Shown in pieces: positions 36,614 to 49,666 of a stretch of DNA of 64,000 nt. The stretch's first letter is position 1. Every line of letters starts with the position of its first letter. Origin of the DNA: an uncultured Thermoplasmata archaeon (lineage in GTDB: Archaea; Thermoplasmatota; Thermoplasmata; RBG-16-68-12); contig CAVYJM010000012.1 of the NCBI GenBank assembly GCA_963768855.1, positions 1 to 64,000 of the forward strand, given 5' to 3'. The notes beneath the pieces were generated by a model that worked only from the letters and a program-made list of their open reading frames with translations, did not search any database and was not told the origin of the DNA. A program made the position numbers and the translations under genes.

Positions 36614-37824
36614 TGGTGCGCGAGGCCGTCTGGGTGCCGAACGATCCGGTGCACCTCGTTCGCCTCGAAGGGGGGGTGCAGACCGTGGGCGACCCGCGGT
36701 ACCGGTCGTACTGGGAGAAGGAGCCGCCTGCAGGGTACGTCCCGGACCTCCTCTGGAAGCTCGCTGGGAAGCCGGAAGGCGTGCCCGTCTCCGGAATCCG
36801 CGACGACAACCGCTCCGCGCTCCTCCCTGAACGGCGCTTGGCGATCGGCGGCCAGGAATTCCTGGCTGCGGTCAAGGGCTGCGGCGCCGGCGTGGACGCC
36901 TTCGAGAACGCGCCGCTGACCGCGGAGCGCGTGCGGGCGATCGGCCGCGATGGGGCCGCCCTCGAGAGGATCGCCTCGGAGAATGGCGCGAGCGAGGGCT
37001 TCATCACGGGCGAGCGGTGGTTCGGCAACACCCCTTACGGCGGCCAAGCACCCGACAACGCGGCGATTGGTTTCCTGACGAGTCTGCGGGCGACAGACGC
37101 GCAGATCGCGGGGTTCCACGTGTGCCCGATCATCGGCCTGGTCCGGCTCCCGGACGCGCTGGCGGGGATCGCCTCCCGCTTCTTCTGGTACCGCCGGTAC
37201 GAGGGAGAATTCTGGCAGGAGATCCGGCTCATGCCCTCGAACGTCCGCCTGTACTTCCACAGCCCGGTCACCTTCGGGATCGACACGTCGCGGGCCCTCT
37301 CCCTCTTCGGGGTCGCGTCGTTCGACGAGGCGGAACGGTTCCTCGAGAACCTCGCCCGGTCCGCCCTCGCCGCGCTCACGCTCTACGCCCGCACCCTGCG
37401 GCACGACTCCGTGCGCGGGGGGTACCGGGGCCTCGGATACCACGACGTGTGGCTCGACAAGGACGCGGTGATCGCGCCGGACGGCACGATGCACTTCGCG
37501 GATCTCGAGGGGATCGAAGAGATCCCCGCACCAAACGAGGAGGCGGTCCGGGAGGAGATCGGGAAGCAGTTCCACCGCAACGTGTACGAGGCCACGTACG
37601 CCCTCGAGGCTCTCGCATGGGACGTGGATCGCCGGTGGCGTGCGTTCCGCTCCGCGCCGGAGCGCCGGCGCTGGATCCTCGAGGTCCTCGAACGCGCCTG
37701 CGTCGCGGACCCCTTCCTCTCCCTCGACCGTCGCGGCGCGAACCTGGTCCTCGGAGTGGAGCCCGCGGTCGAGCCGGAGACCTGTCGTGTGGAGATTGAC
37801 CTCGCATCGGAGGTGGGGCGGTAG
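36613..37824 (+). CDS. hypothetical protein with SelO/protein-kinase-like motifs
   Basis: AVKGCG, NTPYGG, RLMPSNVRL, GYHDVWLDKD...HFADLEG; ATG overlaps upstream TGA. Confidence 0.5.
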   Translation: MVREAVWVPNDPVHLVRLEGGVQTVGDPRYRSYWEKEPPAGYVPDLLWKLAGKPEGVPVSGIRDDNRSALLPERRLAIGGQEFLAAVKGCGAGVDAFENAPLTAERVRAIGRDGAALERIASENGASEGFITGERWFGNTPYGGQAPDNAAIGFLTSLRATDAQIAGFHVCPIIGLVRLPDALAGIASRFFWYRRYEGEFWQEIRLMPSNVRLYFHSPVTFGIDTSRALSLFGVASFDEAERFLENLARSALAALTLYARTLRHDSVRGGYRGLGYHDVWLDKDAVIAPDGTMHFADLEGIEEIPAPNEEAVREEIGKQFHRNVYEATYALEALAWDVDRRWRAFRSAPERRRWILEVLERACVADPFLSLDRRGANLVLGVEPAVEPETCRVEIDLASEVGR

Positions 37825-39280
37825 ATGGACAGCGGTCGAGTGCGCGCAATCCTCGAAGGGATCGAAGGCCACCAGGAGGCGTCCATGTCCTCGGAGGAAC
37901 GGGGTGTCCTCGTGACGCAAGGCCTGGTGAAGAGCGTGGACGCTCCCACGCGGGACCGGTGGACCGCGGGCGTCGCCAACCTCGTCGCCTTGCGGGACCG
38001 GGTCCGCGATCTGTCGCGGCAGGCGCTCGCGACTCCGGGACCGGACGCGCCGCCCGAGCTGCGGCAGATGATCGCCAGCCTCGAGGAACTCACCCGGGAG
38101 AAGTCGTCCCTCGGCGCCCTCGTCTGGAACGGGCCCACGCAGGAGTACGTCCAGGTGACGCTCGCGGGCCGGGGCGTCCTGGAGGACCTCAAGACCTGGG
38201 AGAAACGGCTCTCGGGTCGGGACTTCGCCCAGTTTCAGCAGGAGCTGGGGACGTACCGCGCCGGGCTCGTCGACCTCGTGAACCGCGCCTCGCTCTTGAA
38301 CCGCAGCCTGACCCTGGACGAGCAGAGCCGCCTGGACGACGAGTGGGCCGCCGCGCCCATGACGAACGTGGACGTCCGCTTTGCCTCGATGATCCTCGCG
38401 AAGCGTCCCGTGAACCCGGGGATGCTCGTCTCGGAGTTCCAGTGGTTCAATCATGACACGAACTGGGGGACCTTCAGTCCCGAGGACCGCCTCGTCGCCT
38501 CCGCGATCCTGACCTCCCTTCCGTGGGACCCGGCGATCGTCCGGAGCACGTTCGAGCGGATCCGCATCGCGCTCCAGTACCACGGGATCTCTCCGGAGGA
38601 CCGGGTCATCGTCGCCGCGTCCCTCGCGGACCTCCAGGAGGGCTGGTGGGAGCAGGTCTTCTCCCGGATTGACGAGGTCAAGAAGCAGCGTCCCGCTCTG
38701 AACTCCCTCCTCGATCTCCGCGCTCGCCCGCTCGCCCTACCCCGTCGCGGAAGCGCTCGGCCGCTTCGACGGCGCGTTGTCGGGCATGGCTGCGAAGGGC
38801 TTCAAGGATGGAATCCAGTTGGACATCGCGGCCTCCCTCCTTGCGTCATCCCAAGTCCCTCAGGAAGCCCTGGTCGACCGTTTCGCCTACACGTTGTCGA
38901 ACGTGCAGGGCGCGTTCGATCCCCCGTTCGCGCCCGCCGCGATGCTCGCCACGAACCCGCTCGAGCCGAACGAGGCGATCGACGTCTTCCGGGACTGCAT
39001 CGGGGCCGTGACCCGGATGAGCTTCTTCGACCTCACCCTCGAGATCGAGGAGCTCGCCCTGATCATGAGCTACGGCGTCGCTCCCCTCGGGACGGGCTAC
39101 CTGGGCGGGAACCTGCCCCCCGGGGCCGCGCTGCAACCGCCCGCCGCCGCAATGGCCGCAGCCGTGACGGGCCTCGGGACGTCGTGGTACGTCTGGCACA
39201 ACTACTTCGTGTACCGCCCGATCGGCCGATACATCGCGACCCATCCGGTCCACGTGCACACCGTGGCGGCGTTCGGCTAG
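37825..39280 (+). CDS. helical-repeat hypothetical protein (about 484 aa), frameshifted at ~38710
   Basis: Repeated EDR(L/V)(V/I)ASAILT / DIAASLLAS helices; removing one base near 38712 joins the 37825 frame to track ORF 38777-39280 (ISALARSPYPVAEALGRFDGALSGMAAKG). Confidence 0.65.
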
Positions 39281-41686: not shown

Positions 41687-41693
41687 TTAAGTA
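41687..41693 (+). promoter_or_regulatory. TATA box of Rab-like GTPase 1 (TTAAGTA); matching boxes at 42319-42325 and 42993-42999
   Basis: TTAAGT(A/G) precedes each of the three co-oriented genes at 41724, 42367 and 43105. Confidence 0.55.
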
Positions 41694-41723: not shown

Positions 41724-42287
41724 ATGACCCAAGTCCAGCGCATTAAGACGAAGGTCTGCCTCGTCGGGGAGGCCGCGGTCGGCAAGACGTCCCTCATCCG
41801 CCGCTATGTGCAGGACGAGTTCGACGACCGCTACATCACGACCCTCGGCGCGAAGGTCTCGAAGAAGGAGCTGGAGTTCGATCTCCCGGACAAGGACACG
41901 AAGGTCCAGATGGACATGACGATCTGGGACATCATGGGCGAGAAGGGCTTCCGGGACCTCCTGAAGGAGGCGTTCTTCCACGGCGCGAAGGGCACGATCG
42001 CGGTCTGCGACCTCACGCGCTACTCCACGCTCAAGGAGCTCGACGACTGGGTGCAGAGCGTCTTCAACGTGGTCGGGGAGATCCCGGTCGTCTTCGCGAT
42101 CAACAAGATCGACCTGAAGGACGAGGTCATGATCCTCTACGGGGAGAAGGAGATCGGGCAGGCCGTGCGCGCGTTCGAGGCGCCGTATTTCTATACCTCG
42201 GCCAAGACCGGCGAGAACGTGGAGACGCTGTTCAAGCGACTGGGGTCGATGGTCCTCGCGAAGGAGGGCATCGCGACCCCTTCGTGA
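41724..42287 (+). CDS. Rab-like small GTPase (Ras superfamily), paralog 1
   Basis: G1 GEAAVGKTS, G2 YITTLG, G3 IWDIMGE, G4 NKID, G5 TSAK; RabF-like segments DMTIW, GFRDLL, FFHGA, AVCDLT; no C-terminal Cys. Confidence 0.92.
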   Translation: MTQVQRIKTKVCLVGEAAVGKTSLIRRYVQDEFDDRYITTLGAKVSKKELEFDLPDKDTKVQMDMTIWDIMGEKGFRDLLKEAFFHGAKGTIAVCDLTRYSTLKELDDWVQSVFNVVGEIPVVFAINKIDLKDEVMILYGEKEIGQAVRAFEAPYFYTSAKTGENVETLFKRLGSMVLAKEGIATPS

Positions 42288-42366
42288 TTCTCGCGGGCGG
42301 CAAACCGGGCCACAAGCGTTAAGTGCCCCACGGCCTCCCGTCGGGCGGTCGCAGCGGAGAGGTCGG

Positions 42367-42918
42367 ATGACGGAAACGAAGCACCTCAAGTCCAAGATCT
42401 GTCTCGTCGGGGAGAAGGCCGTCGGGAAGACGAGCCTGATCCGCCGCTACGTCCTCGACATGTTTGACGATCAGTACATCACGACGATCGGGACGCGGGT
42501 CTCGAAGAAGGAGGCGCGGGTCTTCCTCCCCGAGCGCGACCTGCTCGTCGACGTCGACATGCAGATCTGGGACATCATGGGCGAGAAGGGCTTCCGCGAG
42601 CTGCTCAAGGAGGCCTACTTCTACGGCGCCAACGGCATCCTGGCGGTCGCCGACCTGACACGCCGCAAGACGCTCGACGACCTCGACGACTGGATCGACG
42701 GGGTCGAGCAGATCGTGGGCAAGGTCCCGGTCCTGATCGCGGTCAACAAGAGCGACCTCGTGTCGAGCTCGCAGTACGGGGAGCGGGACATCGAACAGGT
42801 GGCCCGCGCGTTTGATTGCCCCTTCCTCCTGACGTCGGCGAAGTCCGGTTCGAACGTCGAAGAAGTGTTCCGGCGCATCGGCCAGCTGGTCACGGAATCC
42901 CAGCTCGCTCCGAAGTGA
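42367..42918 (+). CDS. Rab-like small GTPase (Ras superfamily), paralog 2
   Basis: G1 GEKAVGKTS, G2 YITTIG, G3 IWDIMGE, G4 NKSD, G5 TSAK; DMQIW, GFRELL, YFYGA, AVADLT; about 55% identical to paralog 1 by manual alignment. Confidence 0.92.
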   Translation: MTETKHLKSKICLVGEKAVGKTSLIRRYVLDMFDDQYITTIGTRVSKKEARVFLPERDLLVDVDMQIWDIMGEKGFRELLKEAYFYGANGILAVADLTRRKTLDDLDDWIDGVEQIVGKVPVLIAVNKSDLVSSSQYGERDIEQVARAFDCPFLLTSAKSGSNVEEVFRRIGQLVTESQLAPK

Positions 42919-43104
42919 GACCCGGGCGGCGCCGAGCAGTCGGTTCGAACGACGTTCACTTGCGCCCCTCCTGACCCGGGTCCGCGAAATCATTAAGTAC
43001 GCTCCGCTCGATGGACGCGCCCCCGAAGCCGGTGCCTGTGGGTTGCAGGCAATGGGGGAGGGGTCTCGGGCCGGGAGCGGGGACCAACCGGATTGGAAAC
43101 ACCC

Positions 43105-45768
43105 ATGCTCGCGCGAAGTCAGACTCGGACCGCAACGAGCCCGATACGGTGGCTCTTGTTGCTCTTCATCGTGTTCGTCCTGGCGCTCAGCGTAACACCT
43201 CCCTCTCGCGGGGAGATCCCAACCATGCAGCCGAATCCGGACGCATCGCGGACGGTCACATGGGTCATGAACGACTCGGCGGGGCTGAAGACCGCCCAGA
43301 ACATCTCCTTCGTAGGCGGGAACGCCACGCTGGCCTGGACGCCGGTCCTACTGAACTGGTCGCAGGGTTCGGATTTCGAGGCGAACGTGTCCGGGTCGCT
43401 CGATCCGAACGTGACCGCGGACGCGAGCGGGTTGGCCCTTGGGGCGAACCTCAGCAACCGCCTCATGGACGGGGACTTCGGGTCCTCCGGAGTCTGGGCC
43501 TACGCGAACGGAACCGCGAACAACACCACGGCTGAGTGGATCCCGTATCTTGGGATGGCGCGGCTCAACCACTCCTCGCCGACGACGCAGACTCTCTGGG
43601 ACTCCTTTGCGAACATCGCCGCGAACTGGACACCGACTTCGTCGCTCCAGTCGACCAGCCACGTCTACCAGGCCGCGGGTGCGATGGGCGACTTCGTGAA
43701 CGTAACGGCGGGGGTGGATCAGTTTGCCGGCGCCCTGAATGCGGGAATCATAAACTGGTCTGGATACGATCAGCTGAGGATCATGATTCATCTCAACGCC
43801 TCCGCGCCGGCAGCGTTCAACATGTCGGCCCTGGACAGCGGCTTTCACACCCAAACGACCCAGCCGGTTGCGTTGGCGGCCGATTGGAACACCGTCACGG
43901 TGGATCTCGACCAGCTCGGACCGAACCGGTCGGCGCTCGCCTTCCTGAGATTCCGAATCGTCGGGCTTGGCGGCCAAGCGTTGCCGCCTCTCAACGTGCT
44001 CTTCCTAGATGCCGAGATCGGTCGGGCGAAGGTGGCTGACACGACGGCCAGCGTAAGCCAGATGTTCACCAAGACGTTCACGGCGCCTTCCGCGGGGAGT
44101 GCCTACTTGTCCTTCGACTGGACGATCGAGAACCAGACCGGCGTGGCCAGTTCCATCATGAGCGCGACTCTGGACGGCCCGTCGGGGCAGTTCAGTACGA
44201 GCCTCTTGTGGAGGTTCCCATCCGAGTGGCACCACCTCGTCGCGGACGTCTCGCCCCAGGTGGCCGAGGCCGGGCCCGTACAGCCTGAGCTTCAGCCTGC
44301 GGGTCGAGCTCGACAACATCACCCCTTCGAATGTGACGGCCTACGTCGACAACGCGGCCTTCGTATACCCCGACCGCCACAACGGCACATACCTTTCCCA
44401 GCCCCTCAGCTTCGGCGCCGATTCGCGATATTTGCGTCTCACCTGGTTGGATGTGCTGCCCTCGTCCGAGACGACGGCTCGCCTCGCGTTCCAGACAGGC
44501 AACACCACGTCCGCTTGGGGGAGCTGGCACGAGTTCGCGACCCCCGGGACCTACGGCCTTGCGGAGGGAGCGGTCTGGTTCCGCGTTCGTGCGGATCTCA
44601 ACACCACGAACGCCAGTGTCTCACCAATCCTGTCCGCGCTCTCCGTTTCAGCGGAGCACCGGATCGCACACGGGGTCATCGTATCGGAGACGTACTCCGC
44701 CGATCCGGACTTCCTCCGGTGGCGGAGCTTCAACGCCTCTTGGGAGGCCGGCCAGTTGAATTCGGTCAACTTTTGGGTCGGCAACGGGAGCTACTGGACC
44801 GCCGTCACGCCGGGCGCCGATCTGGGCTTCGTCACGGGCCCCCGGCTCGCATGGAAGGCCGTCCTGACCACGTTCGACACCCTGCAGACTCCCGCGTTGG
44901 CGGACTTCGCGGTCACGTACGAATTCCTCGGCGCTCCGGTGTCGATCTCGATTGTCGCCGGGTGGCCCGCTCAATGTCACGCAGGGCCAGAGCGTTGCGT
45001 TCTCCGCTCGAGTTCTCGATGCGGGGGCCCACGCGGTCCCCACCGCTTCCATCGTTTGGTCGACGACAGATCCGATGGGTCACGTCTACAACAACGGTAC
45101 GTACGTCGCCGGATCGATCGGTGACTTCTACGTGAACGCCACGGTCTCTGGACTCACGTCGGTGACCCAGTCGGTCGTCGTCCATGTCTCGGCAGGCAAC
45201 ATCCCCGTGGCGGGCTGGTTGGTGGGGAGTCTGGCCGTATGTCCTCCTGGTGGCCGCAGCCGCGATGGTCGGGTTCGCCCTGTACCAGCTCGCGATCGTT
45301 CGGGTCTACCCCATCGACGATGTCTTCCTGATCGCAAAGGACGGACGGCTGATCGTGCACAACACGCGACGCATGCGCGCCGACCGGGACGAGGACATCC
45401 TGTCCGGCATGCTCACCGCGATCATGTCGTTCCTTCGGGACCAGGATCCCGAGGAGAACGGGGAGCTGAAACGGTTCGAAGTCGGAGGCAAAACGACCTT
45501 GCTCGAGCGGGGTCCCCACGTCTACCTTACCGCCATCTACTCCGGGCGCGTCCCGCGCTGGGCCGGGAAGGACCTGCATCGCTTCATGGGGGACTTGGAG
45601 GATCATTTCGGCGACGCGTTCGCGAACTGGTCGGGCTCCCCGGAAGACCTCCATGGCCTCAAGGAGTTCATGGGCAGGTTCGTCTCCCACGTGAGGTATC
45701 GCGGCGACCCCCCGCTCGAGCCGACGCGCAAGCTGAACGCGGCTCAGCGCGGGACGAACAACAGGTAG
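43105..45768 (+). CDS. single-pass surface protein (about 886 aa) with cytoplasmic longin-like domain; three +1 frameshifts (~44276, ~44952, ~45205)
   Basis: Track ORFs 43093, 44333, 44952 and 45184 join seamlessly if one base is removed at each site (GPYSLSFSLRVEL; SISLSPGGPLNV; NIPWRAGWWGVWPY). Signal peptide, NxT/S-rich beta domains, Ig-like unit, TM 45232-45300, then IDDVFLIAKDGRLIVH...DEDILSGMLTAIMSFLRD...DLEDHFGDAFANWSG. Confidence 0.72.
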
Positions 45769-45878
45769 AACATGACCGCGAATCCGAGGAGCATGAACCC
45801 CGTCGAGATGATCCACATCCACTTGAGGAGCCGCGACCGCTGCTCGGGGTTCTCCCACGCCCGCTCCAGGCGCTCCAT
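45744..45878 (-). CDS. 44-aa single-TM protein translationally coupled to atpD
   Basis: MERLERAWENPEQRSRLLKWMWIISTGFMLLGFAVMFYLLFVPR; ATG overlaps the atpD stop (TGATG); below track cut-off. Confidence 0.65.
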   Translation of the reverse strand: MERLERAWENPEQRSRLLKWMWIISTGFMLLGFAVMFYLLFVPR

Positions 45879-46498
45879 CACATGGCCTTGAACCGCTTGA
45901 GGCGCATGAAGTTGTCCCGCTCCATCTCCTCGAGCCGCTGGCGGATGAAGGCCTCCGTCGACTTCAGCTCCGGGATGACGCGGTACTCCAGCGCGTTCAC
46001 GCGACGCTTCACCTTCTCGATCTCCTCGATCAGGCGGCGCATCGTCGTCTCGATCTCCGCGGCGACGACGATGTCCTCGACGAGGGCCTCGTAGGCCTCC
46101 GCGGCCTCGTCGATCCGCGCCGACGTGGTGATCACGCCGTACCCGCGGTCCTCGAGCTTCTTCCGGACGCTCTTCGCGTCAATCTTGGGGACGATGATTC
46201 CCATCACGTTCTTCGTTTTCAGGTCCAAGGTGGGCACCTCGCGGGACGCCAGTGCGGCCGAGCGCACGCCGAGGGATCCCTCGATGGCCCGGGCGATCAC
46301 GATCCGCTGCTCCGCGGTCCGGTACTTCTCCGCGAGGTTGGATCGCAGGGTCTTCGCGCGGTCCAGGACGCGGAAGAACTCGACGATGAGCGCGTCTCGC
46401 TTCAGCTTCAGGAGGCGGTGGCCCCGCTCGGCCATCCGACGAGTCCGCCGCAGCTGGAGCAGCGCCGACCTCGTGGGCTTGTAGTTCTGGAGGACCAT
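45878..46498 (-). CDS. atpD: A/V-type ATP synthase subunit D
   Basis: KPTRSALL, RGHRLLKLKRDAL, IEKVKRRVNALEYRVIP, LEEMERDNFMRLK. Confidence 0.96.
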   Translation of the reverse strand: MVLQNYKPTRSALLQLRRTRRMAERGHRLLKLKRDALIVEFFRVLDRAKTLRSNLAEKYRTAEQRIVIARAIEGSLGVRSAALASREVPTLDLKTKNVMGIIVPKIDAKSVRKKLEDRGYGVITTSARIDEAAEAYEALVEDIVVAAEIETTMRRLIEEIEKVKRRVNALEYRVIPELKSTEAFIRQRLEEMERDNFMRLKRFKAM

Positions 46499-47901: not shown

Positions 47902-49666
47902 TCAGCGCGCCTCCAGCTTCTTGAAGTCCTCGTCCATCATCGTCAGCGTTTTCTCGAGCTCCTGGTCGAACTTCTCCTCGTACTTCACCCGGGTCAGGAG
48001 CTCCCGCGACTTGACGGAGGCGATGTCCTTGACCGGCACGTCCAGGGAGGCGGCTTTGCGGCCGAGGTCCGCGAACTTCTTGATCGAGGAGATCAGCTTG
48101 AACTGCCGCTCGGGAGGGCAGAACGTGTCCACGGGGTGGTACGCGTTCTGCTGCAGGAAGATCTCCCGGACCATCCGCGCCACCTCGAGGGTGAGTTGCT
48201 GCTCGGGGGGGAGCGCGTCCGCACCGACCAGCCGCACGATCTCCTCGAGCTCGGCCTCTTCTTGCAGGGTGCGCTGCGCCCACGAGCGCAGCTTGGGCCA
48301 CTCCTCGTTGACCTTCGTCCGGAACCACTCCTCGAGCTGCGGACCGTACAGGCTGTAGGAGGTGAGCCAGTTGATCGCAGGGAAGTGCCTCCGCGCGCGA
48401 AGGGCCGTGTCGAGGGCCCAGAACACCTTGACGATGCGGAGCGTCCCCTGGGTCACCGGCTCGGAGAAGTCGCCTCCGCTCGGGGACACGGCCCCGACGA
48501 CGCTGACGCTCCCTTCCCGGCCATTCAAGGTGGTCACGCGACCGGCTCGCTCGTAGAACTCGCTCAACCTGGCAGACAGATACGCCGGGAACCCTTCCTC
48601 GCCCGGCATCTCCTCGAGTCGGCTCGAGATCTCACGCATCGCCTCGGCCCACCGCGAGGTGGAGTCGGCCATGAGTGCGACGTTGTAGCCCATATCGCGG
48701 TAGTATTCCGCCAGGGTCATGCCGGTGTACACGGACGCTTCCCGTGCGGCGACGGGCATGTTACTCGTGTTCGCGATGAGGGCCATGCGATCCATGAGCG
48801 GAGCCCCCGTATACGGGTCCTCGAGCTTGGGGAACGTGGTCAGGACCTCCGTCATCTCGTTGCCGCGCTCGCCGCAGCCGATGTAGATGACCACCTGGGC
48901 GTCGCACCACTTGCTCAGTTGCTGCTCGCTCACCGTCTTCCCCGTCCCGAAGCCGCCGGGGATTGCGGCCGTGCCGCCCTTCGCGAGCGGGAACAGGAAG
49001 TCCATGACCCGCTGTCCCGTGATGAGCGGCACGGTAGGCATGAGCCGCTCCTTCGAGGGCCGGGGCCGGCGCACGGGCCACTCCTGCATCATCATGATCT
49101 TGCGGCCGTCGCTCAGCTCGACGACCGTCTCGTCGACCTTCATCTTCCCGGAGCGCACCCGGATGACCTTGCCGGACACATCCGGAGGGACCATGATCCG
49201 GTGCTCGACGTTCTTGGCCTCCTGCACGGTCCCGAGGACCTGGCCGCCCCGCACCGCGTCGCCTTCCTTGGCGAGGGGCTTGAAGTCCCAGAGTTTCTCG
49301 CGGCTCAGGCCCGGGGCGCGCACGCCGCGCAAGATGAAGTCGCCCATGACCTTCTGCAGGACGGGCAGCGGTCTCTGGACGCCGTCGTAGATGTTGCCGA
49401 GGAGCCCGGGTCCGAGCTCCACGGTCAGGGGCTTCCCGGAGTCCACCACGGGCTCGCCCGGGGCGGATGCCCGCGGTTTCCTCGTAGACCTGGATGACCG
49501 TCTTCTCGCCGCGGAGCTGGATGACCTCGCCCATCAGCTTCTCGGTGCCGACGTACATCACGTCGTACATCCGGGGCCGCAGGCCCGTCGCGGTCACGAC
49601 CGGACCCGCGACCCGCTGAATCTCCCCCGTCGCTTTCCCATGCTCCACCGTCGCGCTCAGCGCCAC
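47902..49666 (-). CDS. atpA: A/V-type ATP synthase subunit A (frameshift at 49457-49459)
   Basis: N-terminus (RVAGPVV...[12 protein letters not shown]) in track ORF 48761-49666, remainder ([38 protein letters not shown]) in 47902-49449; removing one G gives 587 aa. Confidence 0.95.

Follow-up and report, generated by a model that had tools for sequence, protein, structure and literature searches.

In Streptomyces, the conservon operon encodes a histidine-kinase-like protein (CvnA), a Roadblock protein (CvnB), a DUF742 protein (CvnC) and a GTPase (CvnD). The conservon and Rup1 are receptor-Roadblock-GTPase systems known or predicted in bacteria (PMC4316618). The Rup1 GTPase lacks the switch II (G3) Gln, and its neighbours are a membrane protein with the order unnamed cytoplasmic domain, transmembrane (TM) helix, OmpA, a coiled-coil protein and an output enzyme (PMC4316618). 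None of the Rup-type GTPases has been experimentally characterised so far, and in the work of Wuichet and Sogaard-Andersen none was coupled to MglB (PMC4316618). In Asgard archaea, longin domains and expanded sets of Rab-like GTPases are generally regarded as eukaryote-like traits (PMC4917890, PMC10933270), and the GTPases of these genomes rarely adjoin their presumed regulators, so that gene order cannot match partners (PMC10933270). Here we describe a three-gene module, made up of two Rab-like GTPase genes and a receptor-like gene, in an uncultured Thermoplasmata archaeon (RBG-16-68-12; GenBank assembly GCA_963768855.1). The module lies within a stretch of 64,000 nucleotides (contig CAVYJM010000012.1, positions 1 to 64,000, forward strand), referred to below as the window.

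The genes for GTPase 1, GTPase 2 and the receptor-like protein are all on the plus strand and are flanked by pyrF and atpD in the window and in 16 relatives. Four parts of our reading, described below, are established: which genes the locus contains, what fold is predicted, that synteny is conserved and that the protein families co-occur across genomes. On balance we lean, by a modest degree, towards a module of two paralogous soluble Rab-like GTPases and an N-glycosylated single-pass receptor-like protein whose cytoplasmic longin-fold platform would control them. The window is part of an archaeal contig with a GC content of ~67%, from a 2.87-Mb genome assembled in 24 contigs with an estimated bin contamination of 7.7%.

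The order GTPase 1, GTPase 2, receptor and then convergent atpD was found in 16/16 relatives fetched, including three genomes of a second family, and the adjacency of the two GTPase genes and the receptor gene, from which the original prediction started, is thus kept in two families. Identity to the orthologues is 64-94% for the GTPases (69-86% for GTPase 1 orthologues), 41-83% for the tail of the receptor and 27-49% for the first ectodomain segment. Scanning for related loci with a single protein returned close orthologues alone. One relative (G003) has the whole locus twice (L035 and L036), and each copy has an additional, more divergent receptor paralogue (tail 44-45% identical) positioned after the first receptor and before atpD.

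Both GTPases match the Pfam Ras family (PF00071; E 3e-30 for GTPase 1 and 2.7e-32 for GTPase 2), with ~105-112 bits for Ras compared to ~36-37 bits for Arf, and they are paralogues with 59% identity. Their best matches among solved structures are a Thorarchaeota Rab (5e-27), then Rab21, Ypt6, Rab6, Sec4, Rab23 and Rab7, which bears out their original description as Rab-like. The G1-G5 motifs are complete in both proteins and invariant in the orthologue alignments. The switch II motif WDIMGEKG, invariant in 14 orthologues of GTPase 1 and 17 of GTPase 2, has Glu at the position of the Ras/Rab catalytic Gln, and neither protein has a C-terminal Cys prenylation motif (the C-termini are ...IATPS and ...QLAPK). 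Since Glu replaces Gln and the C-terminal Cys is absent, the term Rab-like appears from sequence to hold as similarity to the best matches, not as membership of the Rab family. The MglA family is ruled out for both proteins by the canonical WDxxG with the G3 Asp present. A classical MglA-like GTPase gene (G000:C6:941711-942856, minus strand; PF00071, 38.8 bits) adjoins two Roadblock/LC7 genes and is separate from the Rab-like set.

The receptor has a signal-peptide-like N-terminus, and its ectodomain contains 29 N-x-S/T sequons against 7.5 +/- 2.4 expected from composition, with one in the tail. Because the sequons concentrate on the N-terminal side of the TM helix, the sequence places this side outside the cell and the tail inside. 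Signal peptide, glycosylation sequons, one TM helix and a cytoplasmic domain agree with the single-pass surface protein originally predicted. For the first 347 residues of the ectodomain, an AlphaFold2 (AF2) model (pLDDT 72.5) contains a beta-sandwich whose best structural matches are carbohydrate-binding modules (CBMs): that of an alkaline mannanase (Z 15.3), CBM11 (Z 13.8) and many more down to Z 10. Across the tail family the ectodomains are variable (DUF11, CARDB, CBM-like) while the TM-plus-tail part is constant, an arrangement which by analogy suggests receptor families.

The tail is predicted to have a longin fold. Its AF2 model, built on an alignment of 14 paralogues, has a pLDDT of 85.4 and a pTM of 0.81, and the DSSP assignment (E7-14, E19-24, H33-49, E59-63, E66-72, E76-82, H90-110, H122-132) gives the same beta-beta-alpha-beta-beta-beta-alpha-alpha topology that had been read from the sequence. 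In an exhaustive structural comparison the top matches were Sec22b (Z 12.9), VAMP7 (12.5), synbindin (12.0) and sedlin (11.4). Further matches included the longin domain of the Lokiarchaeal Roadblock-Longin protein (8yqg; Z 11.2), CPLANE (11.1) and Mon1-Ccz1 (10.8), with adaptor sigma and mu subunits, GATOR1, FLCN and SRX at Z 9-10.5. Longins thus scored Z 11-12.9 over 113-134 residues, compared to Z 7.9-8.5 over ~100 residues for Roadblock, MglB and MglC, and Foldseek agrees with this longin-first ranking. The tail lacks the N-terminal helix of Roadblock, as strand 1 begins ~6 residues after the TM helix, and in the AF2 model its C-terminal helices are placed as in longins.

At the sequence level the picture is different, and the longin identity put forward in the original prediction holds by modelled fold and not by sequence, where the likely relation is to the prokaryotic Roadblock/LC7/MglB superfamily. 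Comparison of the tail with the genome's seven Roadblock/LC7 proteins by hhalign gave 84% probability (E 7e-6, 83 columns) over the beta-beta-alpha-beta-beta-beta core. The Roadblock model PF03259 gave no match on this tail; it scored below cut-off on some paralogues (20.1 bits) and is present on the homologues P0174 and P0189. JGI gives some tail homologues the name 'regulator of Ras-like GTPase activity (Roadblock/LC7/MglB)'. Searches of Pfam, NCBIfam and PADLOC returned no family for the tail or the intact orthologue and lend no support to a defence-system reading. A sequence-profile search of the PDB with the tail family gave insignificant matches alone (PprA, MotA and MON1; E 0.13-0.5; MON1 longin 1 at E 0.49). 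We take the modelled tail to belong, as a divergent representative, to the Roadblock/longin superfamily, with its helices arranged in the longin manner. The nearest named language-model neighbours of the tail are 140-aa Asgard proteins (scores 0.87-0.90), a similarity that serves as a lead alone. Conserved motifs of the tail are VFL..DG.L, D.D.LSGMLTA..F, ERG and W.G. The most conserved are D-x-D-x-LSGMLTA at the start of helix 1, an ERG turn with a near-invariant Arg, and W-x-G, and one may speculate that these are contact or catalytic elements.

There are ~16 paralogous tail domains in the genome, mostly C-terminal in large proteins and directly after a TM helix, and a global search for the family found 6066 cluster representatives at E <= 1e-3. 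Giant proteins with two or three tail-type copies head that search (P0001-P0018). Two tail-type domains lie inside a 2443-aa frame (G000:C18:136471-143799, plus strand), at aa 1424-1590 and 1961-2113, the first of them lacking a preceding TM helix. At G000:C6:391679-392606 (plus strand), a weak match to a tail-type longin, containing one TGA, comes directly after a Roadblock/LC7 domain (PF03259, 24.5 bits), an arrangement like that of the Lokiarchaeal 8yqg. The JGI name 'OmpA-family porin' of another homologue (P0034) seems to be a mis-annotation, its contig having no GTPase or OmpA neighbour.

The link between tail and GTPases was surveyed in an even sample of 301 Thermoplasmatota genomes, with Ras-like GTPases defined as PF00071 matches at E <= 1e-15. 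The tail domain occurs in 42 genomes and Ras-like GTPases in 45; 41 genomes have both, one has the tail alone, four the GTPase alone and 255 neither, and the five discordant genomes mostly involve weak matches. When 30 families were tallied, both were present in 11, neither was found in 17 and two were discordant. In one family, tail and GTPase occur in the same single genome of 21, and in small genomes with a single tail and a single GTPase the copies are far apart and unlinked. Two further TM-longin paralogues in the window's genome abut GTPase genes, and adjacent pairs occur in several orientations in distant genomes (G113:C2, G173:C159 with two GTPases, G118:C180, G075:C2, G145:C42 and G165:C184). 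Across Thermoplasmatota, where a survey of gene neighbourhoods had originally been suggested, GTPase-longin adjacency recurs in other genomes but is not general, as the counts given further below show. Tail-domain matches reach ~28 per genome in Thermoplasmatota lineages. It is a tentative but serious possibility that several of these lineages have an expanded receptor family which couples diverse ectodomains to Rab-like GTPases via a membrane-tethered longin domain.

The module reads as a receptor-fused form of the Roadblock/longin-GTPase partnership. Like the conservon (CvnA-D) and Rup1, it combines the concept of a membrane sensor with a Roadblock-type protein and a Ras-like GTPase, but it has no histidine kinase, DUF742, coiled-coil, cyclase or output partner, and sensor and Roadblock/longin domain are one polypeptide. 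Conservon membership is ruled out, the locus being three genes alone between pyrF and atpD in the window and the 16 relatives. The two GTPases share with Rup1 the lack of the G3 Gln, and bacterial OmpA proteins hold a domain shaped like the tail (TM-score 0.74-0.81, from shape comparison alone). As a lead drawn from these models, the archaeal module and the Rup1 system may be related. MglA-MglB/Roadblock-LC7 pairs (COG2018) also have a Roadblock-superfamily domain encoded beside a small GTPase. Here, by contrast, the GTPases are Rab-like with a canonical DxxG and not MglA-type, and the tail has no N-terminal helix, has longin-type C-terminal helices and is joined in one protein with a TM helix and a large ectodomain. 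The eukaryotic and Asgard longin platforms (Mon1-Ccz1, TRAPP Bet5/Trs23, FLCN-FNIP, SRX-SRbeta; 8yqg) are alike in fold and topology (Z 9-13) and in partner class, a Rab-like/Arf-like GTPase. They differ in that our tail has no longin Pfam match, is tethered by its own TM helix as the end of a receptor and belongs to a Thermoplasmata host. The module differs from the known systems in that a single chain carries the sensor, the TM helix and the longin-type domain, in having a Rab-like instead of an MglA-type partner, and in the host phylum.

A TTAAGT box precedes each of the three genes, as had been noted originally (Table 1). The window has five copies of this hexamer against 1.9 expected, three of the five being those before the module genes, and the whole genome has 135. 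At the corresponding place, other GTPase genes in the genome have TTATAA, TTAAAT or TTAAGA. The idea that TTAAGT regulates this module specifically was rejected; the hexamer is one variant of the organism's general TATA-like box. As such a general box precedes each gene, the three genes probably have separate promoters, with no element specific to the module.

If the module works as we propose, the membrane-tethered longin tail would serve as a membrane docking site for GTPase 1, GTPase 2 or both. It would probably be dimeric, like other Roadblock/longin platforms, dimerisation being usual for domains of these two kinds. Lacking both a lipid anchor and the catalytic Gln, the GTPases would depend on something that brings them to the membrane and perhaps on a residue provided in trans. 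The tail could set the nucleotide state of the GTPases, as a platform resembling a guanine nucleotide exchange factor or a GTPase-activating protein, or it could be a GTP-dependent anchor as in SRX-SRbeta. Ligand binding by the ectodomain (probably of a glycan), or its clustering, would then switch the GTPase inside the cell. By analogy, this working would resemble Roadblock/longin-GTPase platforms such as MglB-MglA, Ragulator-Rag, Mon1-Ccz1-Rab7, TRAPP-Rab1 and SRX-SRbeta.

Several points weigh against this proposal. Binding of tail to GTPase, and any effect on nucleotide exchange or hydrolysis, are predictions from genes and models, and the longin fold comes from a predicted model built on 14 paralogues. 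Neither the tail nor, at E <= 10, any other part of the genome matches the eukaryotic longin Pfam models (PF13774 Longin, PF19036 Fuz_longin_1). Folds of the longin and Roadblock kind also have roles unrelated to GTPases, in SNAREs, coat subunits and dynein light chains. Each gene has its own TATA-like box, so that co-transcription is not required. The co-occurrence counts are not phylogenetically independent, and tails adjoin GTPase genes in 3 of ~16 cases in this genome and in 0 of 62 in the five distant genomes that were checked completely. Co-folding of the two GTPases with the tail, using orthologue alignments, gave a median score of 0.30 against a mark of 0.32 and was run without controls; it speaks neither for nor against binding.

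Some of these points would fit a tail that is a general dimerisation or scaffold module, anchoring or clustering surface glycoproteins with no direct link to GTPases, the neighbourhood being gene order inherited in one lineage. Such a tail would explain why most family members do not adjoin GTPases and why the three genes have separate promoter boxes, and it agrees with the many non-GTPase roles of longins, with the SNARE and coat subunits among the structural matches, and with the giant proteins whose internal tail domain has no TM helix before it. Against it stand the near-perfect co-occurrence across the 301 genomes, which includes genomes with single unlinked copies, the independent recurrence of adjacency in different orientations, and the retention of the trio across two families. 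We consider a pure scaffold unlikely.

The GTPases and the TM-longin protein might otherwise serve to remodel membranes or to traffic surface proteins, for instance in vesicle budding or glycoprotein targeting, instead of signalling. The receptor is a heavily glycosylated envelope protein, SRX domains from the receptor for the signal recognition particle are among the structural matches (Z 9-10), and one archaeal small GTPase, ArvA, is a driver of vesicle formation (PMC10927574). The ArvA-ArvB-ArvC system of Euryarchaeota resembles our locus in having a non-Asgard small GTPase, conserved neighbours and a membrane-related role (PMC10927574). It differs in that the neighbours of ArvA are DUF2073 (ArvB) and DUF2072 (ArvC), neither of which is found next to our module, bounded as it is by pyrF and atpD, and PMC10927574 mentions no longin/Roadblock partner. 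The GTPases here are Ras/Rab-like by Pfam bits, not Arf/Sar-like. An ArvA-type vesiculation system was rejected on account of the other neighbours and the other GTPase class, and the many paralogues with different ectodomains fit sensors better than a single housekeeping machine. A role in traffic is accordingly improbable.

In the window the receptor gene is split into four frame segments (43105-~44274, ~44276-~44959, ~44958-45206 and 45223-45768) by three breaks, each within a G/C run. All four pieces are open, and together they are colinear from start to stop with the 917-aa orthologue P0153 (L042), the tail being 78% identical. In relatives, the receptor orthologue is read in one open frame (810-932 aa), and its tblastn coordinates are frame-consistent. 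Two other genes in the window are broken as well. The gene for A-type ATP synthase subunit A (atpA, 47902-49666, minus strand) is in two frames with a break near 49459, where its orthologues are single open reading frames (ORFs) of ~592-601 aa. A plus-strand gene at 37816-39277 is in two frames with a break near 38705, probably an indel, and is one 494-aa frame in L068. Because the window has frameshifts in essential atpA and in one more conserved gene as well, the three receptor breaks are most likely assembly indels and not gene decay. That the receptor is a true pseudogene with three fixed frameshifts, in a module decaying in this organism, is very unlikely, for although three +1 shifts in 2.7 kb are denser than the two in the flanking 9 kb, they all fall at G/C runs in a gene whose pieces are open and align end to end with an orthologue, whose orthologues are single-frame, and whose neighbours in the window share the fault. 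A fourth frame break upstream of the ATG at 43105 was considered and is read as 5' leader; the ATG is conserved, and so is the DNA in close relatives, with one difference in G-run length. The frameshifts had been expected to hide the gene from annotation. The three shifts are there, but the gene is not fully hidden, as the tail piece is called as an ORF (P0154).

We found no literature description of TM-tethered longin/Roadblock receptors with Rab-like GTPases in Thermoplasmatota, although search coverage was incomplete and this is not proof of novelty. The original remark that no functional description was known for this phylum therefore stands as far as the search went, and is to be set beside the bacterial receptor-Roadblock-GTPase systems already known or predicted (PMC4316618). 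A compact conserved unit of two GTPases and one membrane-anchored longin-fold protein outside the Asgard archaea gives a directly testable assignment of partners. If the tail regulates the GTPases, it would show how signals from outside a prokaryotic cell can reach a small GTPase that has no lipid anchor. The reading, if true, would provide a first concrete role for prokaryotic Rab-like (Rup-type) GTPases, and transmembrane receptor-longin-small GTPase signalling would exist outside Asgard archaea and eukaryotes. The longin-Rab-like partnership would then have an earlier origin or a wider distribution than the Asgard 'eukaryotic signature' view supposes, which bears on whether longin-GTPase platforms predate eukaryogenesis.

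Table 1. Features of the three-gene module and their positions in the window.
Feature	Position	Strand	Details
TATA-like box TTAAGT	41687..41692	+	37 nt upstream of GTPase 1 start
GTPase 1	41724..42287	+	187 aa; Ras superfamily, Rab-like; P-loop GEAAVGKTS, switch II WDIMGEKG, NKID, SAK
TATA-like box TTAAGT	42319..42324	+	48 nt upstream of GTPase 2 start
GTPase 2	42367..42918	+	183 aa; P-loop GEKAVGKTS, switch II WDIMGEKG, NKSD, SAK
TATA-like box TTAAGT	42993..42998	+	112 nt upstream of receptor gene start; conserved in two relatives
Receptor-like single-pass glycoprotein gene	43105..45768	+	~882-890 aa; from alignment to the intact 917-aa orthologue P0153
CBM-like beta-sandwich of ectodomain	43576..44037	+	AF2 model and structural matches
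Frame break 1 (+1), near 44274	44268..44280	+	at GCCGGGCCCG
Frame break 2 (+1), near 44958	44950..44962	+	at GCCGGGTGGCCC
Membrane-proximal Ig-like domain (weak)	44958..45206	+	Pfam Big_1 match under the cut-off (E 0.034); Atlas leads include clusters bearing Big_2
Frame break 3 (+1), near 45215	45207..45225	+	at GGTTGGTGGGGAG
Transmembrane helix WPYVLLVAAAAMVGFALYQLAIV	45232..45300	+	from sequence; sequons on N-terminal side only
Cytoplasmic longin-fold domain (predicted)	45313..45690	+	~130 aa; AF2 model, structural matches, profile comparison

Other loci showed features of their own. Three tandem Rab-like GTPase genes at G000:C7:106429-108242 (plus strand) each have their own TATA-like box, with no tail-domain gene within 6 kb. 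A nearly identical GTPase locus is found on a pair of contigs (C20:7276 and C24:12956), and two nearly identical copies of a TM-longin gene occur at C16:1549-3993 and C6:1074525-1076678; either case may reflect strain duplication or bin redundancy. The atpA genes of two relatives contain a ~155-180-aa insertion without counterpart in the window (in L069, residues 250-429 of a 774-aa frame; in L059, residues 257-410 of a 755-aa frame), which may be an intein. Just downstream of atpD, a 45-aa ORF on the minus strand (45744-45881) encodes one hydrophobic helix and overlaps the 3' end of the receptor gene by 25 nt.

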